A stretch of 63,997 nucleotides of DNA, filler included, from Candidatus Woesearchaeota archaeon (lineage in GTDB: Archaea > Nanobdellota > Nanobdellia > Woesearchaeales > CG1-02-33-12): the NCBI GenBank assembly GCA_018399355.1. It is 3 parts of 3 records of this genome, joined end to end, with 100 filler letters (N's around TTAATTAATTAA, not from the genome) between each part and the next. Parts side by side here need not be neighbours in the genome. Positions count along the whole stretch, not along the records: positions 1 to 26,196 come from JAGYOA010000010.1; 2 more parts are not named here. The stretch is one strand, 5' to 3'. Below are positions 1,387 through 48,835 of this stretch, piece by piece (position 1 is the stretch's first letter; each line of letters starts with the position of its first letter). The position numbers and the translations under genes are program-made. The notes beneath the pieces were generated by a model, which made no database searches, was not told the origin of the DNA, and saw only the letters and a program-made list of their open reading frames with translations.

Positions 1387-4049
1387 GACCTCACCTCGAC
1401 TATCAATGGCCCCCACAAATAAGGCACCTGCGAAACCCACAATGCTTCTATCTCCAGATCTTCCTCATCTATATCTATGTTGATTTTTCCATTATTGTCA
1501 AAATCAAGGTTCAAAAGCAATTCATAAACTGCTTTGCTTATGCTATCCTGAGTGTTCCAGCTTATCTCTGAGTTTGTATAATTGCACTCATTTTCTCCAG
1601 AGTAATCGCTTGGTACAGATGCTGTTATAAATCCTGAGTCCTCTGTTTCGATTATCCATGTGCATCCTTCTGCATTTGGAAGCACATCGCTATAAGTTAC
1701 AGATGATTTTATTGCAGCATTGTAGATCATGCTGTTGTTTTTAGAGCATCCTGTTTCATTTTCAGGCGTGTCAGCTGTCTGGAGCTTTATTGTGTTGCTT
1801 CCATTAACTAAGTAGGTTGGAGGAATCCTCAAGACAAAGGGATCTCCTATACTGCGATAGTCCGAGCCGTAATCAGTTATGTTAAAGAGAAGGTTATCAT
1901 TAACATCAAGCATACTTGTCCAATGTGAACCAGAGTATGATAATACTCTTGCATCTATTATCCTAAGCTTGTTTGGTATGTCAACATTGTTTGTGCAACT
2001 ATTGAACTTCTCTGTTTCTATGGCAAGATCAATCTCACCAAATGAGGCAGGCTCAACAAGGGGAGTGAAATCAAATTTTATGTATGAATCAGGGTAGAGT
2101 ATTGAATTCTGGTATTGGCCCATAAGGGTTATTATCTGTGATGAATAGTTTGCCATTACAAGTATCTGCTCTCCTATATCTTCATATATTGAAGTAAGAT
2201 TTTCAACATCAGATGCATTGTAATACAATGACTCATTACATGCAATTTGTCTCATTGTGTCATGGTCTGCATTCTCTCCAAAGGCAACTGCAAAAACAAC
2301 TATTCCATTGTTGCATGCGTTCTGTCCTGCATCAATTGCCCATTGCTTATCCTGTTCACTTGAACTACCTCCTGAACTATCACCTCTTGTGCCTGAGCCG
2401 TCATAATCTGAGAATCCATTGCAATAATATGTGGGCTGCCCATCACTCATGACAACTATGAATTTTTTATTTTCACTTGTTATAACCATATCCTTTGCCC
2501 TGTTTACCCCGCAGCATATGCATGTTCCCCCATTAGCTGTATATCCATTTATCTTGCTTTCAAGCATTCCTTTATTATCTGTTATTGGTTGAAAATCATT
2601 TGCGCTTGTGCTGTAACTTACTAATCCGATTTCATTCCCACTCATATTCAATACAGTTTCTACAAACTGTAAATCTGCGTTTTTTGCAAGGTCAAGCCTT
2701 GTCTGGCAATCTGTTATCTCGTGATTTCTGGTTATTCCTGAACTGCATGTTCCACATTGATCTCCTGCACATGAGTCTGTATATTCACATTCCCTTGTTT
2801 CCCAATCCCAGCACCAGATAAACCATGAAACACAGCATTCATACCTGCATTTTGCACCAGGCAAAGGCACCTCGCATGTGCTCATACTTCCTGAAACATC
2901 AGTAACAAGAACAGAATCAGATGGCTCTCCTGATGTAATGTTCAATATCTCAGAAATATTTGTTGTCCCCAACCTTATTGGTATTGTTTTTTGGGGGAAG
3001 GGAAGTGCCTCTTCTTCTATACTAATGAACTGGTCTTCATCTGAGCCGCTCCATGAATAAGCTGTTTCGTTTCCTATGTTGAGAAAAGTTGTTTTGTTGT
3101 TGTAGAAATGGAGGTAAATATCAATATAGTTTAGATTTCCAGGGATATCAAAAGAAGAATAAAGATTTATTAGCCCATTTATTCCTGGGAAATAATAGTA
3201 GCTTATCCCAGATGTTGTGTCACTTATTAGTTGGCTTGTTTTGTAAGTTACCTTTGCATAACCTCCTGCGATATATGCTTTGTCAAGCTCTTCCTTGAAT
3301 ATTATTGAAAGGTTGTTTTCTATACCTGCCTGAAAATTGCATGATGTTATGTTCCATCTTGTTGAGCTCATGTTTTCCTCTGGAGGATTAAACAAATCAC
3401 AGAAAACCCCATTCACATACAAATCAAAATCACTTCCTGCATCAAGCTCGATAAATGCATCCTCTATTACTGCATCATCAGGAATGGTTTCTATCTCTCT
3501 TGAAATGTTTCCCTGGCCCACAAAACCACCAAAATATGCGAAGGAAGATGTTGTTTTTTCTTTTATGCTTTTGAGATACGCCCTTGCAGTTGAGCCTTTT
3601 ACAGGCCTTTCATTCTCATACCCTGAAATCATCCTTCTTGCAGATATAACTGTTTGATTTGTGGGCAAGTCTCTTGAATAAACATCATTTCCTCCAACTA
3701 TTATACTGAAACCAATATTTCTGGGAATTATTTCTGCTGTTAAATTTTCTGCAAGATTTTTACAGAGCTGTGTTTTGTTTAAAATACAAAATTCTCCTAT
3801 CTGCTCAAGTACACTTTTTTCCTGGTTTGTTATCTCACCAGAGGCTATAAGCTCCTTAACGTAAGTGTTATTTATCTCACCTATTTTTAATACAGAAAGC
3901 ACGTTAATAATATCATGCGCACAGTAATCTAAATTTGTATATTCCCTATCAGCAACATAAAATGAATCCAGTAAAATTATCCCTACTATTAACAGTGTAG
4001 CACCCATTATTGCATCTATTGTAAAAAATACCCCATTTTTTATTGCCAT
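1377..4049 (-). CDS. Large pilin-like protein with VWA domain, candidate tip adhesin
   Basis: KNG|VFFTIDA class III-like N-terminus; MIDAS elements LVTDVSGSM, GGT, VMSDG; VFAVAFG strand. Confidence 0.8.
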   Translation of the reverse strand: MAIKNGVFFTIDAIMGATLLIVGIILLDSFYVADREYTNLDYCAHDIINVLSVLKIGEINNTYVKELIASGEITNQEKSVLEQIGEFCILNKTQLCKNLAENLTAEIIPRNIGFSIIVGGNDVYSRDLPTNQTVISARRMISGYENERPVKGSTARAYLKSIKEKTTSSFAYFGGFVGQGNISREIETIPDDAVIEDAFIELDAGSDFDLYVNGVFCDLFNPPEENMSSTRWNITSCNFQAGIENNLSIIFKEELDKAYIAGGYAKVTYKTSQLISDTTSGISYYYFPGINGLINLYSSFDIPGNLNYIDIYLHFYNNKTTFLNIGNETAYSWSGSDEDQFISIEEEALPFPQKTIPIRLGTTNISEILNITSGEPSDSVLVTDVSGSMSTCEVPLPGAKCRYECCVSWFIWCWDWETRECEYTDSCAGDQCGTCSSGITRNHEITDCQTRLDLAKNADLQFVETVLNMSGNEIGLVSYSTSANDFQPITDNKGMLESKINGYTANGGTCICCGVNRAKDMVITSENKKFIVVMSDGQPTYYCNGFSDYDGSGTRGDSSGGSSSEQDKQWAIDAGQNACNNGIVVFAVAFGENADHDTMRQIACNESLYYNASDVENLTSIYEDIGEQILVMANYSSQIITLMGQYQNSILYPDSYIKFDFTPLVEPASFGEIDLAIETEKFNSCTNNVDIPNKLRIIDARVLSYSGSHWTSMLDVNDNLLFNITDYGSDYRSIGDPFVLRIPPTYLVNGSNTIKLQTADTPENETGCSKNNSMIYNAAIKSSVTYSDVLPNAEGCTWIIETEDSGFITASVPSDYSGENECNYTNSEISWNTQDSISKAVYELLLNLDFDNNGKINIDIDEEDLEIEALWVSQVPYLWGPLIVEVRSWQ

Positions 4050-4546
4050 GCATATACCACCATTCTTGCTATGCTGTTATTTTTTGCAACAATTCTTGTG
4101 ACCTTTGCAAGCTTTTTTGGGTTTTCATCTTGATTTATGTTTGTTGAATTTACGCCCGGTTTTCCTATTCCCTCTGTTGTATTGTTTATTCTTATTTTGC
4201 TTCCATCACTATTTTCAAAAAAAATATAATAATCATATATTGTTCCAAATATTTTTTTTGTGTTGCTGTAATCCATAGATAAAAAAACATCCAGTTTTTT
4301 TTGGTTTATTTTATCATCTGTGGCTATTCCTATGTGTGTTACATTTTCCGATGTCCAGTTTTTTGGATATCCCTCTGTTAACAGAGAATCAGAGATTAAT
4401 TTTGCACTTTCCAATATATCACCAAGCAGCACTTCATCCTGGTTTGATAGATTGGTTGTTGTTTTGTAATAAACAGCAATTGCAACGCCAAATATGACTA
4501 TTGCTATTATCATATCCATACAAAATATTTGCGCCTTAGTTGAGAT
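4040..4546 (-). CDS. Minor pilin-like protein, probable non-AUG start at ATC 4546
   Basis: In-frame extension upstream of ATG 4519 gives ISTKA|QIFCMDMII; GGAGG lies 8 nt upstream of the ATC. Confidence 0.65.
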   Translation of the reverse strand: MSTKAQIFCMDMIIAIVIFGVAIAVYYKTTTNLSNQDEVLLGDILESAKLISDSLLTEGYPKNWTSENVTHIGIATDDKINQKKLDVFLSMDYSNTKKIFGTIYDYYIFFENSDGSKIRINNTTEGIGKPGVNSTNINQDENPKKLAKVTRIVAKNNSIARMVVYAWQ

Positions 4547-4925
4547 TTATAATCCCTCCCTTGTTTGTTATTGTATTATTTCCTTTTTTTATGGTGCCAT
4601 TAATCTTTGGTATTCTTAAGCTGAATTCCATCTCATTCATAATTACTGTGAACTGGTTTTCATATGTTGCTATTTCGTATTCCTTTCCATCAAACTCGTA
4701 TGGAAGGTAAAATGTCCTATTGTAGCCTTCCTTAACCTGAGAGGCAAGGATTATTTCATTCTGTATCTTATAAGCAACATCCTTAATAATGATATAATCC
4801 CTTTGCCTGTTAAGCTTTTCTGTATGATCGCTAGTTGAAGAAACAAAGATTATCAACATCATAAGGCATATTCCAATAAGAACTATAAACTCCATAGCGA
4901 CCTGGGCTCTTAACCATCTACCCAT
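4536..4925 (-). CDS. Minor pilin, class III signal peptide
   Basis: RA|QVAMEF with E at +5 and hydrophobic helix. Confidence 0.8.
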   Translation of the reverse strand: MGRWLRAQVAMEFIVLIGICLMMLIIFVSSTSDHTEKLNRQRDYIIIKDVAYKIQNEIILASQVKEGYNRTFYLPYEFDGKEYEIATYENQFTVIMNEMEFSLRIPKINGTIKKGNNTITNKGGIINLN

Positions 4926-5320
4926 ACGTAACCCTCCCTTGCCTCTATTGTTATGTAATGTATTCCGGGGCTTGTTGAAACATCTCCACTTATATTAACA
5001 GAGCTTGTTTGGCTGATGTCAGATATACCGCTTTTTGTTTTTATTTTGAAACAAACCTCATAATCTTCCATAACTATGCTTTCAACGTTTTCAGGCATGT
5101 AAACCTTTATCCTTGTTTTTGAGGGCTCGCCTAGATAATAAACAGCTTCAGAGTTGTCAACTATTTTTTTTACAATCTTGTCTGCCTGGCTTGTTATTAT
5201 CTGGTAGTTTGTTGTGGCGGTATGCTGGTAGAATATTATTATCAAGGGGGTTGTTATAATAAGAACAAAACCTACTATTATCAAGTATTCCATGCTAACT
5301 TGCGCAAACTTTCCCCTCAT
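4910..5320 (-). CDS. Minor pilin, class III signal peptide
   Basis: KFA|QVSMEY with E at +5 and hydrophobic helix. Confidence 0.8.
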   Translation of the reverse strand: MRGKFAQVSMEYLIIVGFVLIITTPLIIIFYQHTATTNYQIITSQADKIVKKIVDNSEAVYYLGEPSKTRIKVYMPENVESIVMEDYEVCFKIKTKSGISDISQTSSVNISGDVSTSPGIHYITIEAREGYVWVDG

Positions 5321-5486
5321 AAAATAACTTTTCTTAAACGCATATTTAAATTTATGTAACTATTTTAAAATAAGTAATGGAAATAACAAAAAACAGCTTT
5401 AAAATAGTTAGGTTTATATATTAGTAGTTGTTAATATATCAAAAAGTATAGTAATATACTAAAAATCCAATATCAGAGGTGATATT
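5321..5486. promoter_or_regulatory. Divergent promoter region between the minor-pilin operon and the major pilin
   Basis: TTTAAA box near 5345 for the minus strand; TTTATATA near 5413; SD GAGGTGA before ATG 5487. Confidence 0.5.
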
Positions 5487-5933
5487 ATGAAAAAAGGACA
5501 AGCTGCAATGGAGTTCTTAATGACATACGGCTGGGCAATACTTGTTGTTTTGCTGGCCATAGCAGCACTGGCATATTTTGGAGTGCTTAATCCAGGAAGA
5601 TATCTGCCTGCAAGCTGCAACCTTCCATCAGGTTTAGCCTGTGTTGATCATAAAGTTGTAGGCGGAGCAGATAGTGAAGTAGTACTTGTTATCAGGAATG
5701 GAATGGGAGAAAACTTAGATCCTTTTAATGTTTCAGTAGAGGGATGCACAAGTGCAGATGGACCAGTGGAAGCTATTGAGGGTTTGAGTGATGGAGAAGA
5801 AGAAATAATTACAATAAGTTGTACTGAGGATTTATCAGGAACAAAATTCAGTGGAGACATCACAGTTCAGTACACCAAAGAGAGCGGAATTGATCATACA
5901 GTAACAGGAAGTATTACCTCTCAAATCCAGTAA
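5487..5933 (+). CDS. Probable major type IV pilin
   Basis: MKKG|QAAMEFLMTYGWAILVVL canonical archaeal prepilin N-terminus; strong SD; T-rich terminator follows. Confidence 0.85.
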   Translation: MKKGQAAMEFLMTYGWAILVVLLAIAALAYFGVLNPGRYLPASCNLPSGLACVDHKVVGGADSEVVLVIRNGMGENLDPFNVSVEGCTSADGPVEAIEGLSDGEEEIITISCTEDLSGTKFSGDITVQYTKESGIDHTVTGSITSQIQ

Positions 5934-5960: not shown

Positions 5961-6788
5961 ATGACCAACAAACAAATAGTTGATTATGTAAAACAAAACT
6001 TATCATTAGGTTTTTCTATAGAAAAAATTAAGAAGACACTTCTTGATGTTGGTTGGCAGGAGCATGAAGTTGATGATGCAATCAACGAGGCAAGAGGAAT
6101 TTCTTCAGGGAAAGTAACACCTCCATTGCCAGAAAAGAGCTCTCAAAAAACAAGTGTATTGGCTATATTATCATTAATTTTTGCATTCCTTTTTTTCCCT
6201 CTTGGATTAATTTTGGGAATAATCGCATTATCTGAAATAAAGAAAAATCCTAACCTAAAAGGAAAGGGCATTGCAATCGCTGGTATAATAATAAGCCTTA
6301 TTTTTATAATCTCTTTATTGTTTTTACTTGTAATAGGATATTCTGCGTATTCAGGGTTTTTAACCCCTTCAACATATCTTCCTTCTGAATGTACTCTCCC
6401 GGTTGGTTTGTCTTGCAATGACTTTTCTATTGTTTCAGGAAATCCAGGTTCTATAAGCCTTACAATAGAAAATGGAATGGGCTCTGGCATCATGATCAGA
6501 AGCATAGAAATAACAGACAACATAAATTATGATTGTTACATAGACCTAAAAAAAGAATCTCCTGGAGGACCTGAAATTTATAAGGGATTAGATGGTTGGC
6601 ATCTTCCAAATGGAGAAGAAAAAACAATAAACATAGTGTGCCATGTTGAAAAAACCAATACCAAAACAAAAGGAGATATAATTTTGACTTACTGCGAGGA
6701 ATATTCTTATGACAGAGTATCAAATAATGACGAGTGTGAAACATTTACACGTACTATAGAAGGCGAAATACTTACCAATATCAAATAA
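5961..6788 (+). CDS. Membrane protein with DUF4190-like TM hairpin fused to a pilin-like globular domain
   Basis: LAILSLIF...LGIIALSEIKK...GKGIAIAGII; C-terminus parallels the adjacent pilin (YLPSECTLPVGLSC vs YLPASCNLPSGLAC). Confidence 0.7.
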   Translation: MTNKQIVDYVKQNLSLGFSIEKIKKTLLDVGWQEHEVDDAINEARGISSGKVTPPLPEKSSQKTSVLAILSLIFAFLFFPLGLILGIIALSEIKKNPNLKGKGIAIAGIIISLIFIISLLFLLVIGYSAYSGFLTPSTYLPSECTLPVGLSCNDFSIVSGNPGSISLTIENGMGSGIMIRSIEITDNINYDCYIDLKKESPGGPEIYKGLDGWHLPNGEEKTINIVCHVEKTNTKTKGDIILTYCEEYSYDRVSNNDECETFTRTIEGEILTNIK

Positions 6789-6847
6789 AAATTTTTAGTT
6801 TTCTTAAAAAAGCAAATATTTTATACTACAAACTCTTATTGCCTTTA

Positions 6848-7717
6848 ATGGGGATCAGAAAACCAATTGTTGCCGGCCAGTTCTATGAAAAAGATTTTCA
6901 AAAGCTGAATAAACAGATAGAAGAATGTTTTGAAGGAGAGAATGGACCAGGGGCCTTGCCATTAAAAAAAAGGCAAGGTGATATTCTCGGCGCAATAGTT
7001 CCTCATGCAGGTTATGTTTTTTCAGGGGCGTGTGCAGCATGGTGCTATAAGAAGATTGCGGAATCCAAGTTTCCTGATTTGTTTTTAATATTGGGTCCAA
7101 ATCATTCTGGCTTTGGCACAACCTCAACTATTTTAGATGACTGGGAAACCCCTTTTGGTGTTGTAAAAACTGATAAATCATTTGCAAAAAAGCTTGTTGA
7201 AAACAGTTCAATAAAAGAAGATTCAATGGCCCACCTTAACGAGCATTCAATAGAAGTTCAGCTTCCATTTTTACAGTTTGCATCCAGGGATAATCTTGAT
7301 AATTTAAGGTTTGTTGCAACAACCTTGTCTTATGATTTCAATCTAAGTGAGCTTGCATTATCAATAAGAAAAACAATTGATGAATCAGGAAAAAAGGTTT
7401 GCATAATAGCAAGCTCTGATTTTACACATCATGGTTCTGCATACGGCTATATGCCTTTCTCAGAGAATATAAAGGAAAACATGAAAAAACTTGACTATGG
7501 CGCAATAGATTTCATAAAAAAGCTTGATTCAAAAGGGTTCTTGGACTATGTTAATGAAAAAAAGGCAACCATATGCGGAGCGTCTGCAATATCATTGTTA
7601 ATTGAGATTTTGAAAGACAAGGCCAATAAAGCAAGCCTTATGCACTACTACACTTCAGGAGATGTTATGAAAGATTACAGCAATACAGTGGGATATGCAG
7701 GAATTGTTTTCAAGTAA
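6848..7717 (+). CDS. amrB: MEMO1 family / AmmeMemoRadiSam system protein B
   Basis: RKPIVAGQFY, PHAGYVFSG, GPNH, EHSIEVQLPF, SSDFTH, TICG, VGYA motifs. Confidence 0.92.
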   Translation: MGIRKPIVAGQFYEKDFQKLNKQIEECFEGENGPGALPLKKRQGDILGAIVPHAGYVFSGACAAWCYKKIAESKFPDLFLILGPNHSGFGTTSTILDDWETPFGVVKTDKSFAKKLVENSSIKEDSMAHLNEHSIEVQLPFLQFASRDNLDNLRFVATTLSYDFNLSELALSIRKTIDESGKKVCIIASSDFTHHGSAYGYMPFSENIKENMKKLDYGAIDFIKKLDSKGFLDYVNEKKATICGASAISLLIEILKDKANKASLMHYYTSGDVMKDYSNTVGYAGIVFK

Positions 7718-7720
7718 CTA

Positions 7721-7737
7721 CCGAAAAGCTTATATAA
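7721..7737 (+). promoter_or_regulatory. BRE/TATA promoter of the plus-strand pilin operon (leaderless)
   Basis: CCGAAAAGC-TTATATAA about 22 nt upstream of ATG 7759. Confidence 0.6.
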
Positions 7738-7758
7738 ACAAAAACAAGACTTTTTAGC

Positions 7759-7884
7759 ATGATTTTACTTAAAAAAAGAGGCTTTAATATGACTCCTGAG
7801 GTGATTGTTATAATAATGCTTGCAGTTGTTTTGGCAGCCTTGTTTTTTTTGATAATAGGGAGGGCATCAAATGTTTTGCCTTAA
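7759..7884 (+). CDS. 41-aa mini-pilin, absent from the ORF track
   Basis: MILLKKRG|FNMTPEVIVIIMLAVVLAALFFLIIGRASNVLP; correct spacing from TATA box; overlaps the next gene. Confidence 0.75.
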   Translation: MILLKKRGFNMTPEVIVIIMLAVVLAALFFLIIGRASNVLP

Positions 7885-8605
7885 AAACAATAAAAAAGGG
7901 ATTACAAGAAATGTACTATTTGCATTAATCACAACATTGGTAGCTTTTTTTATAATTATTTTTGTTATTATGTCTATATGGGGTAAGGCGGATGATAATC
8001 TTAATGAGGCAACATGCAGAGCAAGCGTTCTTTCAAGAGTAAAATCAACTTTAAATATTGGACCTATAAAAGTAGCTTTTCCTTTGAGATGCAAGACACA
8101 GGAAAAAAATGCTTTAGTAGGAAATAAGGATGCAATAATGGAGCAGATATCTTATATGAGCGCAAAGTGCTGGTGGATGTTCCTTAATGGAGAATACCAA
8201 AATCTCTTTGACAGGGCAGATTTTTTAAACAATAACAAATGCTTTACATGCTATACTTTTACAGTTGAGCCGGATATCAAGATAACTTCAGAAGAGCTTA
8301 TGGAGTATATGGCAAGCCATTATTATATTGAAACAGAAGAGGCCAAGGTTACATATCTTGACTACATCCAAAGCTATAAGGGAGATGGGGCTGTTTTAAT
8401 TGGTGAAAACACAATTATAACAGGAAAAAAAGAAACACCTTACTCAATAAATTTTTTAAGTCCAGATACAACTTTTATTGGAGAATTATGGGATAGTATT
8501 GTATCATTCTTCTCTGGAGATAACTCAGATAAAGAAATGAACAGGATATACATAGATGAGCTTCAGGGACTATCAACAGACTGCATATATCTTGAGAGTA
8601 TTTAA
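7871..8605 (+). CDS. Pilin-like protein, class III signal peptide
   Basis: NKKG|ITRN then hydrophobic helix; paired Cys (CRAS, CKT, CWWMF, CFTC). Confidence 0.7.
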   Translation: MFCLKNNKKGITRNVLFALITTLVAFFIIIFVIMSIWGKADDNLNEATCRASVLSRVKSTLNIGPIKVAFPLRCKTQEKNALVGNKDAIMEQISYMSAKCWWMFLNGEYQNLFDRADFLNNNKCFTCYTFTVEPDIKITSEELMEYMASHYYIETEEAKVTYLDYIQSYKGDGAVLIGENTIITGKKETPYSINFLSPDTTFIGELWDSIVSFFSGDNSDKEMNRIYIDELQGLSTDCIYLESI

Positions 8606-8606
8606 A

Positions 8607-8759
8607 ATGAAAAAAAATAAAAAAGCAATTATGTGGAATGAAATAATACTTTGGATAATTTTCATTGTTATATTAATTGTTTTTATAATAATACAAACAG
8701 GGTTGAAAGACAAGATGATAAGCGATATAAACAATTTTTTCAACTTTTTGAGGTTTTAA
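8607..8759 (+). CDS. 50-aa mini-pilin
   Basis: Start re-called at 8607: MKKNKKA|IMWNEIILWIIFIVILIV with E at +5. Confidence 0.75.
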   Translation: MKKNKKAIMWNEIILWIIFIVILIVFIIIQTGLKDKMISDINNFFNFLRF

Positions 8760-8760
8760 A

Positions 8761-9366
8761 ATGTTAGGGCTTGATTTTATTGTTAAGGCTGCATTGGGAT
8801 TAGTTGCGCTTTTTGTTGTGCTTGGCTTGATTTATGCCTTAGTGCCTGATGCAATGAAAGAGTACATTGATAACACAGCGCTTGGAAAAATTATTCCTAA
8901 CTTTTCAATAGGATTGGATAAATACGAATCGGATTTTCAAATACCAAAAGAAATAAAAGAGAACATAGAGCAGATTGACAGTCTCATATCAAAAGAAAAA
9001 GATTGGGAATTACAAGAAGGCGAAATCAAAACAATTGAGCTTAATGATTTCACAAAAGATGATATGAGTTATAAAATCATAATAAAAAAAGATTATTACA
9101 TTGTTGAAAATATGAATGGCCAAAGGGCATACTATGAAAACGATTTAACTGCAATACCCTGTGCTATACATACAAGTGATCCGAATTATATGAGCGGACT
9201 TTTAGACGAAAATAAGTATGAAAAAAAGTTTGTTGATAGTATTACACTTAAAGATAAAAATACGATTCAACAAAAAGATGACGAATATGCCTTTTTGGGA
9301 TTGACTAAAGAAAGCAACAGCATTTGTTTTGTTTACTTTTCTCATACAGGAATGAATGCTCCTTAA
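8761..9366 (+). CDS. N-terminally anchored protein in the pilin operon
   Basis: Single N-terminal TM helix without a basic class III region; 1-nt spacing in the operon. Confidence 0.6.
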   Translation: MLGLDFIVKAALGLVALFVVLGLIYALVPDAMKEYIDNTALGKIIPNFSIGLDKYESDFQIPKEIKENIEQIDSLISKEKDWELQEGEIKTIELNDFTKDDMSYKIIIKKDYYIVENMNGQRAYYENDLTAIPCAIHTSDPNYMSGLLDENKYEKKFVDSITLKDKNTIQQKDDEYAFLGLTKESNSICFVYFSHTGMNAP

Positions 9367-9377
9367 CAGAATAAAAA

Positions 9378-9671
9378 ATGAAAAACAAAAAAGCAGTTGA
9401 ACTGAGCTTGAATGTGATTGTTATTGCCGCATTAGTGCTTATTGTTCTCATAGTTTCCATAGCCATTTTCACCGGCCTTGTAGGAGACACTGTTTCTGAT
9501 ACCAAAATTACAATGGGAAGCATTACCGGCGACTATGATGGAGATGGGATAAAAGATTTTCTTGACAAATGCCCATGCTATGCTGGAACAGCAGAATACA
9601 ATGGATGCCCTGAAGAGATTAATGAAGAAAACAGGGAGAAATACACTTCAAGGCATTGTTTAGAAGACTAA
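9378..9671 (+). CDS. Small pilin with a thrombospondin type 3-like Ca-binding motif
   Basis: KKA|VELSLN; DYDGDGIKDFLDKCP...NGCP. Confidence 0.75.
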   Translation: MKNKKAVELSLNVIVIAALVLIVLIVSIAIFTGLVGDTVSDTKITMGSITGDYDGDGIKDFLDKCPCYAGTAEYNGCPEEINEENREKYTSRHCLED

Positions 9672-9672
9672 A

Positions 9673-10899
9673 ATGAAAAACAAAAATAAATCAGAAATAT
9701 CCTTGGAATTCTTGATTGGAGTAGTGATATCTGTATTGCTGATTGTGCTAGCTATTAATATTGTAGCAAAGATGGCAGGTGTTGGCGAAGACAGCAAACA
9801 ATCATTTTACAACCTTGTTGAGATTATAAATGAAGTTAAGGATAATCCTTCTGGAACAATAAAATCAACCAGCCTGAGAATGGACAAGGAAACAGTCATT
9901 CTTGGTTTCCCAAAAAATAATGAGCCAATAAAATTTACTGTTTCTGAAGCAAGCGGTTTTGCTCCGGGATTTACAACATTATCATTTGAAAAACCAATCT
10001 CAGAAGAAAAATGCGAAAAAGACAAGGCATGTATCTGCTTGTGCGGTGAGATAGAATTAAAAGAAAAAGGCAGAGTTGTATGCAATAAAAATCATCTTAT
10101 ATGCAAAAATGTTGAGGATGTTGATTTTCCTGAATTGTCTGATAAAGAAGGAATTTCAATATATTTATCAAAAACTAATGGGTTCTTTATATCAAGATCA
10201 AATATTTTTAAAAGCTGGGAAAACTCGCAATTAAGACCTGTTTATGTTGAGAAATATGAGTCAGGAGGAAATAAACTTGTTTCTGTTTGCGAAAATCCAC
10301 AGGATGGCTCATGTCTTGACCCTAATTATAAAAAAGAAATAGATACACTTACCGGACTGACTAAATTGAAAGAATTTATTGAATCCTGTAAGGAATCCGA
10401 GATAAGAGAGGGAGATTACTGCGGATGTGGTTTATTTGCTTTTGATTATGAAATTCCTGAAGGATATGGCGTAAAGTTTTCTGAAGAAGATGAAGTTCTT
10501 TCATTAATATTAAGAAAAGATAAAAAAGACACTGAAACAAAATTAGAAATTCCTGATATAGATTTTTATGATTATTTATTGTATTCGGAAGAGAGCCAAC
10601 CCATACATCATGATAATAAGGTAGAAATTGATAATATATTATTAGAAATTGAAAGTGATTACGCCTTCTGCAAAAAAGGCACAGATAATTTTTGTGATGA
10701 AAGTGAAAGCAAAAATCAAATAACTTTTATCAAAAGCCAAAATAATCAAGTTGGAATTGTAAGCCATCCTGAAAATGAACAAGGAAGAGTTGGCTTAATC
10801 ACAGATGGATTAATTGAAAAAAAGCCAAATTCAATAGAAGTTTGTTATCTTATGTATGGTAAGTGTGGATATAGTTTAATTATTCCAGGATGCTCATAA
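9673..10899 (+). CDS. Cys-rich pilin-like protein
   Basis: NKS|EISLEF plus hydrophobic helix; CICLC and CGCG motifs. Confidence 0.7.
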   Translation: MKNKNKSEISLEFLIGVVISVLLIVLAINIVAKMAGVGEDSKQSFYNLVEIINEVKDNPSGTIKSTSLRMDKETVILGFPKNNEPIKFTVSEASGFAPGFTTLSFEKPISEEKCEKDKACICLCGEIELKEKGRVVCNKNHLICKNVEDVDFPELSDKEGISIYLSKTNGFFISRSNIFKSWENSQLRPVYVEKYESGGNKLVSVCENPQDGSCLDPNYKKEIDTLTGLTKLKEFIESCKESEIREGDYCGCGLFAFDYEIPEGYGVKFSEEDEVLSLILRKDKKDTETKLEIPDIDFYDYLLYSEESQPIHHDNKVEIDNILLEIESDYAFCKKGTDNFCDESESKNQITFIKSQNNQVGIVSHPENEQGRVGLITDGLIEKKPNSIEVCYLMYGKCGYSLIIPGCS

Positions 10900-10911
10900 A
10901 AACGAATTCCA

Positions 10912-10927
10912 CCAAAAGTAATTTAAA
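10912..10927 (+). promoter_or_regulatory. Putative BRE/TATA promoter for the 10950-14182 unit
   Basis: CCAAAAG then TTTAAA about 22 nt upstream of ATG 10950. Confidence 0.5.
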
Positions 10928-10949
10928 CTATTAATTTATATTTGCGATT

Positions 10950-11987
10950 ATGAAAAAAAGAGGTATGGCCGATTCTATGCTGGTAGCTATAGAAATAGTT
11001 GGAGCTGCCCTGGTTTCCTTCCTTTTGATAACAACTGCACTAAGATGGGCAGATTCTGAAACACCCTATAAGGAATACCTTTCAAAGGATATTGGACTCG
11101 TAATAGAATCTCTTATGGCAAGCCCGGGAAATATAAAAATAAACTACTCTAATAATGCCTCTGATTATATTATAGATATACAACAAGACTCTGTTGCTGT
11201 TTATACTGATAACAAAGATGATGGAATGCAGTCAACCTTTATTCCTTCACATAAAATAAAGATGGAAAGCGTTGAATTAAGAAATCCTGAAACTATCCAG
11301 TTTTTAAAAACAAACGATGAAATTATAATAAATGAAGAAATCCAGGAAAACCTGGATTTAGTTTATTGCTGCGAAAAAACAGGCTATAAAAAACAAAAAA
11401 TAAATCTTCTTGTTGATTTAAAAGATGAAGAAAATGAGTTAATATACCCTAAGTTGTGTGTTATTGCAAATTCTTTTATGGTAAACATTGGAAATAAAAA
11501 CTTTATTGGTAACTTAATCTCAACAAGAAAGCTAATGGAAAAAACAGATGATGAAATCTCCCAGATTAACTGCATGGATGAATCATATTCTATTCCTGAA
11601 AAAAAGGCAGATGTAATATTAAGCATAACTACAGGCAATTACAATGACGACTCAAACAATATAAAAGCATTTGTTTTATCTGGCTCTGAAAAGGAAGAGG
11701 AGAGCAAAAGATTAGCATGCCTTATAATAAATTCAATATCAAAGAGCATGATAACTGAAGATTTAGAGATTACGGGCGCTTCTGTGGTTCCTGTTAATCT
11801 GACTACAACTAATTATGATTTTCCCCTTGATTTAATCTCAAGCTACACTGAGAACCAACAAAATTTTGAAAGTGTTTTTGTAATGATTGAACTTGGGAAC
11901 ATAAACAGCGATCAGGGAAAAGATCTTATTGAAAAAATGACTCAAATAGGAGAATTAATTGCAGAGGGTTTTTCTGACTATGAATAA
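10950..11987 (+). CDS. Pilin-like protein with degenerate N-acetylmuramoyl-L-alanine amidase (Amidase_3)-like C-terminal fold
   Basis: KKRG|MADS plus TM; ordered motifs INLLVD, ADVILSI, ESKRLACLI, VMIELGNINS, IGELIAEG; Zn-ligand His residues absent. Confidence 0.6.
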   Translation: MKKRGMADSMLVAIEIVGAALVSFLLITTALRWADSETPYKEYLSKDIGLVIESLMASPGNIKINYSNNASDYIIDIQQDSVAVYTDNKDDGMQSTFIPSHKIKMESVELRNPETIQFLKTNDEIIINEEIQENLDLVYCCEKTGYKKQKINLLVDLKDEENELIYPKLCVIANSFMVNIGNKNFIGNLISTRKLMEKTDDEISQINCMDESYSIPEKKADVILSITTGNYNDDSNNIKAFVLSGSEKEEESKRLACLIINSISKSMITEDLEITGASVVPVNLTTTNYDFPLDLISSYTENQQNFESVFVMIELGNINSDQGKDLIEKMTQIGELIAEGFSDYE

Positions 11988-12465
11988 TAAAATATTTTTC
12001 TCAAAAAAAGGAAGTGGATATGAAATAGGAAAAAAGCCAACATATTATGTGGTAATATTTTTCTTTTTAACAATAAGCTTTATGCTCTTTGGATTCTTAA
12101 TAATAAGTGAGGTTTCATCATCAAGCAGCATACCTGATAATGCCAGAACAACAGTATTAATCAATAGGTTCCTTAATTCAGAAGACTGCTTTGCATACAA
12201 AGACAGCGAAACAGGAAGGGTTTACCCTGGAATAATAGACATTGAAAAATTTAATGAAAATAATCTTGAAAAATGCTATTATGCAGAGAAAAAATATGAT
12301 TCAAAATCCTTTAGGCTTACCCTTAATGGAGAAGATATAGAGAAAAAAACAATCCTGACAACAAACTGGGGGTCATCAAGATTTGGTCAGGCATCACAAT
12401 ATGTTTTATTATACAATAATGGAGAAATATCAAAAGCAAACCTTTTGATTGCTGTACAAAAATGA
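11980..12465 (+). CDS. Pilin-like protein
   Basis: Start re-called at ATG 11980; SKKG|SGYE then hydrophobic helix. Confidence 0.65.
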   Translation: MNNKIFFSKKGSGYEIGKKPTYYVVIFFFLTISFMLFGFLIISEVSSSSSIPDNARTTVLINRFLNSEDCFAYKDSETGRVYPGIIDIEKFNENNLEKCYYAEKKYDSKSFRLTLNGEDIEKKTILTTNWGSSRFGQASQYVLLYNNGEISKANLLIAVQK

Positions 12466-13067
12466 AATTATCAAACTATTTAAGGAAACTTGAAAAAAAC
12501 AAAAAAGCACTTGATCCTGACTTTACAGATGCAATAATAGCAATAATTTTTACTGCTCTAATTTTTATTTTTGCATTCATCTTTATATCTGGCAATAAAA
12601 GCGGGCTTCAGAGAGTTGCAGAGATCGAGAGCGAGAATCTTGAGAAAAATTATATCCTGATTAATTATCTCAGGACTCCAATTGAGGACAGCAGTCTTAA
12701 TATAGGAGAGTTTCTTGGTAAAAAAACAAAAACAGAGCTTTTAAGAGCAAAACATGGGATGGCAGGAATAGGTGCGTTTTGCGGATACGAAACTCTTGAT
12801 AATACTATTTCACAAAAAAGTGAAGACGGAATCTTGATTAAAGAGACAGAAAACATACTTGAAAATGTAAAAGACTGGAGATTGAATATGTATATTGATG
12901 GTAATGAATTTTGCTTTATAAGACAAGGAAAAGGAGCCATCTCTTCCAAACAAGACATAACTGGAGAGACAGTCATGATACTAATACCTTCAATCAGCAA
13001 AGATCTTGAAATAAAAATTTACTTTAAGCTAAATATATTTGGATTTTCATCACTAAGTTCACTATGA
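12462..13067 (+). CDS. Pilin-like protein
   Basis: NKKA|LDPD then hydrophobic helix; ATGA overlaps on both sides. Confidence 0.65.
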   Translation: MKLSNYLRKLEKNKKALDPDFTDAIIAIIFTALIFIFAFIFISGNKSGLQRVAEIESENLEKNYILINYLRTPIEDSSLNIGEFLGKKTKTELLRAKHGMAGIGAFCGYETLDNTISQKSEDGILIKETENILENVKDWRLNMYIDGNEFCFIRQGKGAISSKQDITGETVMILIPSISKDLEIKIYFKLNIFGFSSLSSL

Positions 13068-14182
13068 TCAAAATGGTAAAAAACAAGAAAGCAAAAATAT
13101 TCCTCACTTTTGTTTCAATATTTATACTTGTAGCTTTGCTTTTTTTTTATGGCAATTATGGGACAGGAACAGTGTTTAAAACAGGGAAGGGAGAATTGCA
13201 GCTGGAAACATTAAAAATATACCAGCAGGCCGAGAAAGCAATGCTTTACATTGACTTGGCTGCAAAATATTCTGCAGAAAAAACCATAAATGATTTAGAT
13301 AAAGAACTTCCAAAAGACACAACAAAAAAAGAGATTTATGCTTTATTTTCTGATAAATTTAATAATTACATGGATGAATACATAGAAAAATATAAAGATG
13401 AAGAACTTGAGAAAGATGGCGAGATAATAATACCAAAGAACAATTATGACTTATTGTTCAAAGAAAGCCGCTTGATTGGAATAGCAACACAAAACATAAA
13501 GATAAACAAGGAAAACATAAACTATTCTGTAAAACCATCTTTTAAAATAGAATTTAAATATGATCTATTTGAAAATTATGAACAACTTACTGAAAGAGCA
13601 GATACTGATGAAGAAATTAATTCTCAGGAACATCAAACAACAAAAGTAGAAGATTGGAATAGCTTGCCAGATGATCAGCTTGAATCTAAAATAAGAGCAG
13701 CTGCATCACAATATAACATTCCTCAACACATCGCATTAGGTATCGCAATGCAAGAAAGCAGTATGAATCATTATTATCCTGATGGCAGTGTAAAAATGTC
13801 AAATGCTAACTGTATAGGCCTTATGCAAGTTCAGCTTGATAGTCGCGACGGAACTTATAATAGTGTGTGTAGTATGAGTAAAGAGGAGTTAAAAGATATA
13901 AACAAAAATATTGATTGTGGAATGAAAATACTCAAAGGTAAGTACAATATGGTTTGTGATTCGAATAACAATCCTTTAATAAGGCGATATATAGACATGT
14001 CAGAATATGAATTAAAGATAAGGGAATGGTGCAAAATTGATGAACATTTAAAGAATTATCTTGAGTATGATGGAGATTGCGATAAGATGGCAATAAGGGC
14101 TTATAATGGATTAGGGTGTGCTGAAAATGCAGATGTTATTTATGTAGAAAGAGTATTAACCCATGCTGCAAAATACAAATAA
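13064..14182 (+). CDS. Pilin-like membrane-anchored protein with C-terminal lytic transglycosylase (SLT) domain
   Basis: NKKA|KIF plus TM; SLT motifs IAMQESS (catalytic Glu), GLMQV, NIDCGMKIL, AIRAYNG, YVERVL. Confidence 0.88.
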   Translation: MIKMVKNKKAKIFLTFVSIFILVALLFFYGNYGTGTVFKTGKGELQLETLKIYQQAEKAMLYIDLAAKYSAEKTINDLDKELPKDTTKKEIYALFSDKFNNYMDEYIEKYKDEELEKDGEIIIPKNNYDLLFKESRLIGIATQNIKINKENINYSVKPSFKIEFKYDLFENYEQLTERADTDEEINSQEHQTTKVEDWNSLPDDQLESKIRAAASQYNIPQHIALGIAMQESSMNHYYPDGSVKMSNANCIGLMQVQLDSRDGTYNSVCSMSKEELKDINKNIDCGMKILKGKYNMVCDSNNNPLIRRYIDMSEYELKIREWCKIDEHLKNYLEYDGDCDKMAIRAYNGLGCAENADVIYVERVLTHAAKYK

Positions 14183-14322
14183 ATTCAAAACAAAAAAAAT
14201 AAACAAATCCATTTAATTGCTGCTTTGCTTTTTGTAATCTTTCTAAAAAATTTAGTTAATTAAAACTTAAAATAATATTTCCAAAACCTAAAAATATATA
14301 TAAAAGCTATGGATTCCTTTTA

Positions 14323-15351
14323 ATGAACATGATAAAGATGCCCTATGATGAAATTCTTGAAAAGATAAAGCAGAAATCAGACCTCAGCGAGCAGGAAATA
14401 AAAGACAAAATTGATGCAAAGCTTAAGCAGCTTTCCGGATTAATAAGCAAAGAAGGAGCTGCCCATATACTTGCAAACGAACTTGGCATAAAGCTTTTTG
14501 ATTCCTTAGGAGGAAAGCTCCAGATAAAAAATATATTGTCAGGAATGAGAAGCGTTGAGGTTGTTGGAAGAGTTACAAGGGTTTTTGAATTAAGGGAATT
14601 TAACTCTAACGGAAGACAGGGCAAGGTTGCTTCTATGATAATAGGGGATGAGACAGGAACAATAAGAGTTGCCATGTGGGGAGAGCAGGCAGACAAAATA
14701 AATGAAATAAAAGAAGGAGATATTGTCAAGATAATAAGCGGATATGTGAGGGAGAACAGAAACAAAGAAAAAGAAATACACATGAACAACATGGGCAGAA
14801 TAGTTGTGAATCCAGAAGGTGTGACAGTAAAAGAGGTTAAGCGAACAACAACCAGCAACAGAAAAAAAATAAAAGACCTAACAGAAGATGATTCAAATGC
14901 TGAAATCCTAGGAACAATAGTTCAGGTTTTTGACCCAAGATTTTTTGAGGTATGCCCTCAATGCGGAAAAAGAGCTAGGAATGATGGAGAAGGATTTTTA
15001 TGCGAAACTCATGGTAATGTAAAGCCTTCATATTCATTTGTTCTTAATATATTCCTTGACGACGGAACAGACAATATAAGAGCAGTATTCTTCAGAGACC
15101 AGGCTCTAAAGTTATTAAACAAAACCCAGGAGCAGATGGTTGAGTACAAGGATAACCCAGAAAAATTTGAGGATATAAAAACAGAGCTTTTAGGCAATAT
15201 AATAAAGATTATCGGAAGAACAACAAAAAATGAGATGTTTAACAGGCTTGAGATTGTCAGCCAGATGGTTTTTATCAATCCTAATCCAGAAGAAGAAATA
15301 AAAAAGCTGAACAAAGAGATGGAAAGCGTTAAAGAAGAAAACGTAGAATAA
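14323..15351 (+). CDS. rpa: Replication protein A (OB folds plus Zn finger)
   Basis: GDETGTIRVAMW and LDDGTDNIRAVFF OB motifs; CPQC...CETH Zn finger. Confidence 0.85.
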   Translation: MNMIKMPYDEILEKIKQKSDLSEQEIKDKIDAKLKQLSGLISKEGAAHILANELGIKLFDSLGGKLQIKNILSGMRSVEVVGRVTRVFELREFNSNGRQGKVASMIIGDETGTIRVAMWGEQADKINEIKEGDIVKIISGYVRENRNKEKEIHMNNMGRIVVNPEGVTVKEVKRTTTSNRKKIKDLTEDDSNAEILGTIVQVFDPRFFEVCPQCGKRARNDGEGFLCETHGNVKPSYSFVLNIFLDDGTDNIRAVFFRDQALKLLNKTQEQMVEYKDNPEKFEDIKTELLGNIIKIIGRTTKNEMFNRLEIVSQMVFINPNPEEEIKKLNKEMESVKEENVE

Positions 15352-15358
15352 ATAAAAA

Positions 15359-15811
15359 ATGATGTTCTCAACACATCTTGCATGTGGTTTAATGTCCGCC
15401 GTATTCTTTTCACAATATCTTGATATTAAAAGCAAAGCAGTTTTCTTTGCAGTTGTTCTTATTTCATCAATTTTGCCAGATGTTGATATGTACAATTCAA
15501 AAATAGGAAAAAAAATAAAGCCATTATCATTTTTTTTGAATATTTTTTTCGGTCACCGCAAGATATTCCATTCACTGCTTTTTGCTTTTATTGTTTGTTT
15601 TTTAATATCTTTTTTTAATATGGAAATAGGCTTAGCCTTTTTTATAGGATATGCATCACATCTTCTTATAGACTCATTAACCCCTGGAGGAACAATGCCT
15701 CTTTATCCTTTATCAAAAAGAAAAATAAAGGGATTTATAGACACATATTCTTTTTCTGATTACGCACTTTTTGTTTTGTTTATGATTTTATTTATTTATC
15801 TGCTGCTATAA
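15359..15811 (+). CDS. Membrane-bound metal-dependent hydrolase (YdjM family)
   Basis: TH, LPDVD, GHRKIFHSL, SHLLID motifs. Confidence 0.85.
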   Translation: MMFSTHLACGLMSAVFFSQYLDIKSKAVFFAVVLISSILPDVDMYNSKIGKKIKPLSFFLNIFFGHRKIFHSLLFAFIVCFLISFFNMEIGLAFFIGYASHLLIDSLTPGGTMPLYPLSKRKIKGFIDTYSFSDYALFVLFMILFIYLLL

Positions 15812-15956
15812 CCATTGGACACTGGACATCAGCGCATAATATATTTAAAGAAAACTATTCTTAATTGTTATATTGCTTCAACTTCCTGTTGGGCTTTTTA
15901 TTTAAGGCTAGGGAAGTTTTTGAAATAAGATGCGAAGAGCAATGGAGGCGATAAAA

Positions 15957-16241
15957 ATGAACCAGGAAAATATACCTGAAAAGAAGTTTAGTACCGGCGT
16001 TATAAGCGCCACAATCTGGAAAAACAAGGGAATAGGCAGAAACGGAAACCCTGTTGATTTCAGAACAGTGTCTTTGCAGAGAAGATACAAAGACAGTAAT
16101 GACGAATGGAAATCAACGAATTCTTTAAGGACCAATGACCTTCCAAAGGCATCATTAGTGCTTGACAAGGCATACGAATACCTTGTTCTCAGGGAGGAAG
16201 GACACGACAGCGAGAATATTGAAATTGAGAAGGTTGAATAA
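15957..16241 (+). CDS. Small conserved protein, possible single-stranded nucleic acid-binding fold
   Basis: SD GGAGG before ATG 15957; ISATIWKN...VSLQRRYKD..EWKSTNSLR; lies between RPA and RadA. Confidence 0.55.
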   Translation: MNQENIPEKKFSTGVISATIWKNKGIGRNGNPVDFRTVSLQRRYKDSNDEWKSTNSLRTNDLPKASLVLDKAYEYLVLREEGHDSENIEIEKVE

Positions 16242-16320
16242 ACCTTCTCGAAATAATTTCAGAAAAAATTCAACAAACTATTTAAAGAATAAGATTCATT
16301 TTAACTAAGGGGTTGATAAT

Positions 16321-17349
16321 ATGAAACTAGAAGAACAAAAAAAATCAGAAGAAGAAAATCTTAATGAAGAACAAGAGAAAAAAATTATTGTTAAAAAAAC
16401 AAAAAAAGAGGAAAAGAAAGAACTTACTGTGCAGGACCTTCCGGGTGTGGGAGCTGCAACAGCTGAAAAGCTTGTTGATTCAGGCTATGGCAATATAATG
16501 TCTATTGCGGTTGCATCTCCTGGAGAGCTTGTTGATACAGCAGGAGTTTCAGAAGCTGCTGCAAGGAAGATGATAAACTTTGCAAGAAACCAGCTTGATA
16601 TGGGATTTGAGTCAGGAGAAGAGCTTCTTAAAAGAAGAAAAAGAGTGGATAAAATAAAGACCAGTTCAGAAGCCCTTGACAACCTTCTTGGTGGAGGATT
16701 TGAGACTTCTTCAATAACAGAATGCTTTGGTGAATATGGCTCTGGAAAAACACAGATTGGACATATTCTTGCTGTTAACTGCCAGAAACAGGATCCAGAT
16801 GCAGTTGCTGTTTACATTGATACTGAAAATACATTCAGGCCTGAAAGAATTGCCCAGCTAGCAAAGGGTGCAGGATTAGAGCCTGAAAAGGTTTTAAAGA
16901 ACATAAAGGTTGCTCGTGCTTATAACTCAGACCATCAAATGCTTTTGGCAGAAAAAGTTGAGGATTTGATAACCAAACAAAACCTTAAAGTTAGAGTTGT
17001 TATTGTTGATTCTCTTACTGCTCACTTCAGGGCAGAGTTTATTGGCCGCGGTACTTTAGCAGAAAGGCAACAAAAGCTAAATAAGCATATGCACATACTT
17101 CTTAAATTGGCAGACATGCACAATGTATGTGTTTATGTAACCAACCAGGTCATGGCCAAGCCGGATGTTTTCTTCGGAGATCCTACACAGGCAATTGGAG
17201 GCCATATTGTGGCCCACGCAAGCACCTTCAGAATTTATTTGAGAAAAGGAAAGAAAGGAAGCAGAGTTGCAAAGCTTGTTGACTCTCCAAACATGCCAGA
17301 AGGAGAAGCAGGGTTCTTTGTTACTGAGGGCGGCCTTAAGGAAATTTAA
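16321..17349 (+). CDS. radA: Recombinase RadA
   Basis: HhH LPGVG; Walker A GEYGSGKT; IDTENTFRPER; RGTLAERQQKL. Confidence 0.97.
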   Translation: MKLEEQKKSEEENLNEEQEKKIIVKKTKKEEKKELTVQDLPGVGAATAEKLVDSGYGNIMSIAVASPGELVDTAGVSEAAARKMINFARNQLDMGFESGEELLKRRKRVDKIKTSSEALDNLLGGGFETSSITECFGEYGSGKTQIGHILAVNCQKQDPDAVAVYIDTENTFRPERIAQLAKGAGLEPEKVLKNIKVARAYNSDHQMLLAEKVEDLITKQNLKVRVVIVDSLTAHFRAEFIGRGTLAERQQKLNKHMHILLKLADMHNVCVYVTNQVMAKPDVFFGDPTQAIGGHIVAHASTFRIYLRKGKKGSRVAKLVDSPNMPEGEAGFFVTEGGLKEI

Positions 17350-26196: not shown

Positions 26197-26296
26197 NNNN
26201 NNNNNNNNNNNNNNNNNNNNNNNNNNNNNNNNNNNNNNNNTTAATTAATTAANNNNNNNNNNNNNNNNNNNNNNNNNNNNNNNNNNNNNNNNNNNN
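26197..26296. other. Artificial contig spacer
   Basis: 44 N + TTAATTAATTAA + 44 N. Confidence 0.97.
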
Positions 26297-48735: not shown

Positions 48736-48835
48736 NNNNNNNNNNNNNNNNNNNNNNNNNNNNNNNNNNNNNNNNNNNNTTAATTAATTAANNNNNNNNN
48801 NNNNNNNNNNNNNNNNNNNNNNNNNNNNNNNNNNN
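48736..48835. other. Artificial contig spacer
   Basis: 44 N + TTAATTAATTAA + 44 N. Confidence 0.97.

Follow-up and report, generated by a model that had tools for sequence, protein, structure and literature searches.

We analysed a 63,997-base stretch of DNA (the window) from a Candidatus Woesearchaeota archaeon (assembly GCA_018399355.1, order Woesearchaeales, family CG1-02-33-12) and describe in it a conserved block of nine genes for membrane-anchored, pilin-like proteins. The last gene of the block, called D, carries a lytic transglycosylase domain of the SLT type, and relatives in this order of DPANN archaea carry other murein hydrolases on the same protein, or none. We think it fairly likely that the block, which is conserved in the order, acts as a module of the cell surface and brings exchangeable murein hydrolases, carried on D, to the walls of bacteria. 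The domains and their motifs, the conservation of the genes and the exchange of the hydrolase are observed directly, and a search of the window's genome yielded no genes for murein synthesis.

Genes A to D are a promoter-proximal sub-operon that makes up the second half of the block, with the following features:

10911 to 10928, plus strand: promoter-like element ACCAAAAGTAATTTAAAC, resembling a B recognition element (BRE) and TATA box, in the 50-nucleotide gap 5' of A
10950 to 11987, plus strand: gene A, 345 residues; MKKRG and a transmembrane helix, an N-terminal domain (helices followed by a beta sheet, residues ~38-128) and a degenerate Amidase_3 domain (~148-345), assigned from an AlphaFold model and structure matches
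11980 to 12465, plus strand: gene B, 161 residues counted from the ATG (the gene-calling tool places the start at a TTG, 11959); anchored protein of no known family, with orthologues in the family and in other families
12462 to 13067, plus strand: gene C, 201 residues; anchored protein of no known family (KKA/LDPDFTD followed by a helix), with orthologues in the family and in other families
13064 to 14182, plus strand: gene D, 372 residues
13064 to 13663, plus strand: scaffold domain of D; KKA motif, transmembrane helix (residues 8-32), three helices and a six-stranded sheet (119-163), from an AlphaFold model with a predicted local distance difference test score (pLDDT) of 75.7 over the N-terminal 200 residues
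13664 to 14182, plus strand: SLT (GH23-type) domain of D, Pfam core 13691-13957, assigned from Pfam and motifs

Murein hydrolases on a conserved scaffold

Over residues 210-298, protein D scored 38.2 bits for the Pfam SLT family (PF01464), whose cut-off is 21.3 (E = 1.2e-9), and a scan of the whole genome gave 40.3 bits. The residues E231-S232, G252-LMQ and A346-YNG are present, the last two of which we take to be the GLMQ and AYNxG motifs of the SLT family, and E231 aligned with the MltC residue that is Glu in structure 4c5f and Gln in the mutant chains 4cfo, 4cfp and 4chx. The SLT domain with intact motifs with which D ends according to the first-pass annotation of the window is thus confirmed. 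SLT lytic transglycosylases cleave the bond between N-acetylmuramic acid (MurNAc) and N-acetylglucosamine (GlcNAc) and leave 1,6-anhydro ends. An NCBIfam scan of all proteins of the block returned only a partial likeness of D to MltC.

The distribution of the scaffold was followed with a profile in a sample of the order that comprised 121 genomes, one per genus; the unpublished genome G123 is counted among them, and no sequence was fetched from it. A match was found in 98 of the 121 genomes, nearly always in a single copy, in open reading frames (ORFs) of 168 to 1433 residues. In a sample of the phylum, 143 of 201 genomes gave a match; 27 of these belong to other orders of the class and have mostly short ORFs. 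We scanned 96 D orthologues with Pfam, namely 88 recovered of the 89 fetched, that of the window and 7 further ones. At least one murein hydrolase family scored above the Pfam cut-off in 52 of them, while 6 gave a sub-threshold hydrolase match only, 1 carried Peptidase_C39_2 and 37 had no recognised hydrolase. The families found were M23 (22 orthologues), SLT (19), NlpC/P60 (5), Amidase_2 (5), M15/VanY (3), 3D (3), Glucosaminidase (1) and YkuD (1), and two or three of them were combined on one protein in 6 orthologues. A survey of orthologous operons for swapped hydrolases, proposed with the first annotation, therefore came out as predicted, with M23, M15, NlpC/P60, Amidase_2, 3D, glucosaminidase and SLT domains.

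In genomes G028, G036 and G031 the hydrolase is placed ahead of the scaffold's last strand, and in the window and in G026, G035 and G021 it is C-terminal; the two insertion points indicate separate fusions. Different cargo was also found in supported sister pairs of the scaffold tree, with SLT in the window and none in G002 (support 100), M23 beside Amidase_2 (95), and SLT beside M23 (85). As judged from these sequence comparisons, D is a carrier: most lineages have murein hydrolases fused to its conserved scaffold of ~165 residues. GDSL esterase domains were seen on some D orthologues (L106, L133), and the YkuD L,D-transpeptidase domain is that of L122; these additions hint at an action on O-acetylated or 3-3 cross-linked murein.

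The SLT domain had at first been taken for a fixed part of the module, which was not borne out. In all nine relatives from the same family, including G001 of the same genus, D is 160-311 residues long and has no SLT domain. A paralogue encoded in the same genome (G000:C56:18792-20891) has a C-terminus that shares 64% identity with the SLT domain of the window; for the orthologous C-terminus in G001, the identity is only 43%. The form of D with this C-terminal domain was found in only three database proteins (53-77% identity), in two of which Pfam called SLT. These relationships indicate that the SLT domain of the window is a recent addition, copied from the paralogue, its likely donor, onto a scaffold that has no such cargo in the closest relatives, so that the window appears to have caught a recent exchange.

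In one relative that has D with this C-terminal domain (P0004, 375 residues), the segment of the catalytic Glu is rewritten, with RYENRAEYES for MQESS, and Pfam SLT was not called. The paralogue on contig C56 (G000:C56:17558-23805, in part in L002) is a second SLT carrier, a protein of 699 residues (~800 in family relatives) whose N-terminal part crosses the membrane several times and which ends in an SLT domain; a 401-residue anchored protein is encoded 5' of it, and three tandem paralogues of ~310 residues with lipoprotein-like signals follow. A third SLT protein, of at least 567 residues, runs off the end of contig C23 (G000:C23:32628-35094, L003). Its gene lies directly 3' of that for a 256-residue protein which starts with MEKRGQVSIF, a typical pilin-like signal.

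Protein A and the nine-gene block

Protein A scored below threshold against Pfam Amidase_3 (PF01520; 18.5 bits against a cut-off of 27, E = 0.0022), and we therefore relied on its AlphaFold model (pLDDT 80, 19 homologues) for the fold. On structural comparison of the C-terminal domain with VIA, the top 14 matches were all Amidase_3 structures with Z scores of 13.0-16.8, and the next match had a Z score of 9.0. The best matches were 4rn7 (Z 16.8), AmiB (16.6) and CwlD (16.4), with root-mean-square deviations (rmsd) of 2.4-2.6 over ~160 residues, and the top Foldseek matches of the model were only Amidase_3 structures (E = 2.5e-6). At the three zinc-ligand columns (His/Glu/His), A has D, I and T, and its clade reads DPGY and SLR or SIT, which agrees with the earlier description of an Amidase_3-like fold that lacks the zinc ligands. 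P0040, a distant relative with the architecture of A, keeps DPGHGG, SIHSN and IELGN and scored 58.6 bits against Amidase_3; its His-ligand motifs DPGH and SIH correspond to DLKD and SIT in A. The catalytic Glu of the IELGN motif (E314) is invariant in 19/19 sequences.

At E ≤ 0.001, a profile search with A yielded 1394 cluster representatives. Of the 151 that matched best, 72 keep the first His ligand (H1), 72 the third ligand (H3) and 130 the catalytic Glu. Since half of these representatives keep the zinc ligands, the ancestral protein was probably an active amidase. A itself is best described as a degenerate homologue and not a functional member of Amidase_3, derived from a large family of anchored amidases and belonging to a clade in which the zinc site was lost. 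Its degenerate domain may bind murein. For B and C, a search of the ESM Atlas returned unnamed archaeal clusters only; the nearest named families were DUF7287/7288, with a score of 0.83, which is a lead only.

The four genes lie on the same strand, with overlaps of 8 (A/B), 4 (B/C) and 4 nucleotides (C/D). When the spacer that precedes A was aligned with those of 8 family relatives, 21 columns were invariant, including ACCAAAA and ATTTAAACT, and the core of the promoter-like element was invariant in 9/9 family genomes, while the flanking proteins are only ~40% identical. The full motif ACCAAAAGTAATTTAAAC has a single occurrence in the 918-kb genome. Its ATTTAAAC box ends 21 nucleotides 5' of the ATG of A, a spacing that recurs 5' of three other genes. 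The element looks like a BRE/TATA pair that would drive a leaderless transcript, an assignment that we presume from general knowledge of archaeal promoters; a scan for sigma-70 promoters was set aside because the organism is an archaeon. The four overlapping genes behind a putative promoter of their own, as first annotated, were thus recovered, and the start at 10912 given for them falls on the element.

The module is not limited to these four genes, as had been supposed, and A to D are a sub-operon within a conserved block whose first five genes are as follows:

7759 to 7884, plus strand: ORF of 41 residues, read from the sequence; KKRG and a hydrophobic helix, ending in NVLP; overlaps the start of g7871
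7871 to 8605, plus strand: g7871, 244-residue membrane-anchored protein with RK[GA] before the helix; orthologues in 8/8 family loci that are long enough and in 4/7 loci of other families
8761 to 9366, plus strand: g8761, 201-residue N-terminally anchored protein without the [KR][GA] motif, from synteny and N-terminus comparison
9378 to 9671, plus strand: g9378, 97 residues, with the clearest pilin-like signal (MKNKKA/VELSLNVIV...), conserved at the N-terminus, and an Asp-rich motif like thrombospondin type 3 (Pfam TSP_3, E = 1.5e-4)
9673 to 10899, plus strand: g9673, 408-residue pilin-like protein (KNKS/EISLEF...), from synteny and N-terminus comparison

The 41-residue ORF is below the size that ordinary gene callers accept. 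It was found by tblastn directly 5' of the g7871 orthologue, in full length in 5 family loci and in part in 3, and is probably the first gene of the block. The g9378 protein is a candidate filament subunit; its gene is present in 2-3 tandem copies in G010 and G036 (L020, 3385-3982; L045, 11755-12552), and its thrombospondin-type-3-like motif is of the calcium-binding type.

In the family, the order is Memo, then g7871, g8761, g9378, g9673, A, B, C and D, then RPA and YdjM. The comparison covered 8 loci with the block and a ninth, fetched in part, with C, D, RPA and YdjM. Outside the family, one genome from each of seven further families of the order was compared; A-B-(C)-D again lies downstream of the upstream genes of the block in 7/7 loci, and RPA follows D in 6/7, the G021 locus having no reported RPA match. 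The block order is therefore syntenic in the 16 other genomes inspected for context (9 of the family and 7 of other families).

The window joins three contigs of one assembly (C2, C3 and C13), and the runs of N at 26197-26296 and 48736-48835 mark these joins, across which adjacency is not real. The locus lies entirely within C2 (1-26196). The assembly has 85 contigs and 918 kb and is rated 97.5% complete; database sources call the homologues Nanoarchaeota, Woesearchaeota or Nanobdellota. A chimeric contig, which the first-pass annotation had named as grounds for rejecting its proposal, was not found: C2 also holds the archaeal markers RPA (14323-15351), RadA (16321-17349) and the cluster S13-S4-S11-RpoD-L18e-L13-S9, and the gene order is repeated in the 16 other genomes. 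Reads of the likely source run (X1) over 6500-16500 yielded short contigs only, which are identical to the window and bridge the g9673/A and B/C/D junctions. None of the listed read-derived pieces of this region bridges the junction between D and RPA, and the argument against a chimera therefore rests on synteny.

Proposed surface assembly and bacterial target

On the reading that we favour, the proteins of the block would be exported, and one of the two prepilin peptidases of the genome would probably process them. They would gather on the cell surface in a short pilus, a pseudopilus or a membrane-bound complex, where the SLT domain of D would cleave the glycan strands in the wall of a neighbouring bacterium and the inactive amidase domain of A may hold the muropeptide stem. 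The purpose could be attachment, feeding or killing. A wider picture is possible, and we advance it tentatively: a single type IV pilus-like organelle would be conserved across the order, with A to D as its tip or priming subunits including the hydrolase carrier. It would be the long-sought apparatus for contact and breaching, most members of the order would depend on bacteria, and not on other archaea, through cross-domain episymbiosis or predation, and the exchange of hydrolases would record adaptation to different bacterial walls.

The same proteins could serve the same target with no pilus at all. Their N-termini would then be uncleaved signal anchors, and a membrane-bound or bindosome-like complex would hold the hydrolase at the envelope. 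We consider this arrangement unlikely in view of the N-termini themselves. In 7/8 of the larger families of the block (A to D and three upstream), a basic stretch that ends in [KR][GA] stands directly before the hydrophobic helix and is conserved across relatives. The motif was present in 67/85 D orthologues and in 31/213 N-terminally anchored control ORFs of the same genome, an enrichment of about five-fold over other anchored proteins, and g9378 and g9673, whose N-termini are the most pilin-like of the block, begin as archaeal pilins typically do. Structural comparison of the D scaffold with VIA gave GspK (Z 6.8, rmsd 3.0 over 94 residues), PilA5 (5.2), PilB (5.0) and PilX (5.0), all below the level that the tool regards as informative; pilins and pseudopilins were 4 of the top 20 matches. 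Elsewhere, the genome holds two Peptidase_A24 (prepilin peptidase) genes, three T2SSE ATPases and T2SSF platform genes, the T2SSE and T2SSF genes being at two loci.

Several results weigh against our reading, and those that concern the pilus speak for an arrangement without one. A to D gave no match to the Pfam Class_IIIsignal model (PF04021) at E ≤ 1 and none above noise to the NCBIfam pilin models, so that of the pilin-like N-termini first ascribed to them, the [KR][GA] motif before the helix stands, being conserved in all four, but the signature of the family does not. In D of the window, Lys and not a hydrophobic residue or Gln directly follows the KKA motif, and in the model a loop of low confidence appears to part the transmembrane helix of D from the next helix, where a pilin would have one continuous helix. 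Genes for a pilus ATPase or platform do not adjoin the block. The pilin-fold matches of the scaffold are weak, since a Z score of 6.8 to GspK is the best of them, below the informative level, and Foldseek found no match at E ≤ 0.001. Other results bear on the locus or its function. No RNA run was found that covers the locus. Since 37/96 D orthologues have no recognised hydrolase and D is bare in all nine family relatives, the block must work without a hydrolase as well. Over the scaffold tree we counted 49 changes of cargo, against 48.1 ± 1.9 with shuffled labels, and 32/95 branches were supported; because the cargo is distributed like shuffled labels on a poorly resolved tree, the events of exchange cannot be counted.

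A tip complex of four subunits, as first proposed for A to D, is not supported. Complex prediction with the soluble parts of A to D gave scores of 0.90, 0.91 and 0.90 with D as partner and 0.00 and 0.00 in controls in which D was replaced, but the control in which C was replaced missed the mark with 0.80, and the prediction gives no verdict; the pilin fold of the D scaffold is only suggested.

A separate cluster at 457-5933 probably encodes an adhesive pilus of type IV. It includes weak matches to Class_IIIsignal (4536-4925 and 4910-5320, minus strand, within 4536-5320), an 890-residue protein with a VWA domain (1377-4049) and a pilin-like gene (5487-5933). A similar segment with Cys residues (YLP..C.LP.GL.C.D) occurs in the protein of the last and in that of the adjoining DUF4190 gene (5961-6788), which gives the impression of a single extracellular domain on two different anchors.

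With regard to the target, enzymes of the M15/VanY, Amidase_2/3 and YkuD families act on D-Ala or MurNAc-peptide chemistry; to our knowledge these bonds occur in bacterial murein only, and pseudomurein lacks them. A scan of the genome found no penicillin-binding protein (PBP) transpeptidase and no protein of the shape, elongation, division and sporulation (SEDS) family, and its only Mur_ligase_M match is FolC, which lies within a thymidylate/folate cluster (ThyA-DHFR-GlyA-Tmk). Since no genes for murein synthesis were found, a bacterial target is the most economical reading. The murein-directed function and bacterial target proposed at the outset are supported by this result, together with the degenerate Amidase_3 domain, the intact SLT domain and the exchanged hydrolases.

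Tethered at the surface, the enzymes might instead feed an archaeon of scant biosynthetic capacity by freeing muropeptides and amino sugars from the debris of walls, with no living cell as target. The small genome (918 kb) would suit such scavenging, and so would the GDSL esterase domains on some D orthologues and the mix of glycosidases, amidases and peptidases among the cargo, which suffices to dismantle murein fully. We think it fairly improbable all the same, because the D position offers one hydrolase per cell and no degradative set, and because bulk digestion would explain the exchange between sister lineages less well than adaptation to particular walls does. Improbable too is that the hydrolases are antibacterial weapons for competition or defence. 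Bactericidal archaeal peptidoglycan hydrolases have been published, with homologues prominent in Nanoarchaeota (PLoS Biol 2025, PMC12352652); in the passages available, these enzymes are modular, with wall-binding domains. In our case the hydrolase belongs to a scaffold that, in most of the order, is conserved, present as a single copy and set among housekeeping genes, which argues for a core function and not for an accessory weapon.

Remodelling of the archaeon's own wall, the usual role of bacterial SLT enzymes encoded with pilus or secretion genes such as VirB1, FlgJ or EtgA, is very unlikely and was rejected, since the search of the 97.5%-complete genome yielded neither a PBP nor a SEDS protein nor a Mur ligase, PBP transpeptidases occur in only 5 of the 121 genomes of the order (SLT in 77, the D scaffold in 98), and a fixed substrate of its own would not predict switching among glycosidases, amidases and endopeptidases. 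The PBP-type transpeptidase domains in these 5/121 genomes (G027:C1:1062871-1063686, G014:C37 and three others) lie in ORFs of 607-1207 residues and are unexpected for archaea.

A surface module directed at bacterial murein thus remains our preferred reading, and it suggests that archaea of this group work on bacteria. For most DPANN archaea, neither the host nor the way of life is known, and what had been in print were stray SLT genes and guesses at bacterial partners. The locus turns this guess into a defined and testable object: the D scaffold can serve as a marker gene in surveys, the block is a short list of proteins to localise, and the substrate range of the enzymes could point to the partner bacteria.

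Relation to known systems

The block resembles the tip complexes of bacterial minor pilins and pseudopilins (GspK-GspI-GspJ, 3ci0; type IV minor pilins) in that several small proteins with pilin-type N-termini are encoded together and one is enlarged by an extra domain. It differs in that there is no sequence similarity, the structural match is below the informative level, the extra domain is an enzyme and assembly is only proposed. PilB of Streptococcus sanguinis is a bacterial protein whose module binds rather than cuts. D is like it in carrying a functional module, grafted in D onto a putatively pilin-like domain (vWA module in PilB, 7b7p; Z 5.0). VirB1, EtgA and FlgJ are specialised lytic transglycosylases of secretion systems and flagella, and act on the producer's own wall. 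As with these enzymes, the SLT enzyme of the window is encoded with a set of genes for a putative surface appendage; unlike them, it belongs to a genome in which no murein synthesis was detected.

Among archaea, extracellular SLT-domain proteins of up to 3000 residues have been described in Woesearchaeota and Pacearchaeota (Castelle et al. 2021, PMC8204110, fam00969), and GH23 genes in Woesearchaeota (Vigneron et al. 2022, PMC9723730). In the passages of these papers that were available, the archaea and the SLT/GH23 domain are the same as ours and bacterial walls are proposed as the target, and the word 'pili' does not occur. The proteins described there stand alone, whereas here the SLT domain is on a 372-residue subunit of a pilin-like operon, at a position where it can be exchanged. 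The hydrolases of PMC12352652 are likewise murein hydrolase domains in archaea without murein; the portion of its text at hand contains neither 'pilin' nor 'class III', and its passages describe no conserved operon or carrier scaffold. [quoted passage not shown] SLT proteins in such archaea and the idea of a bacterial partner are thus already known; what appears to be new is a conserved operon with a position at which the hydrolase is exchanged.

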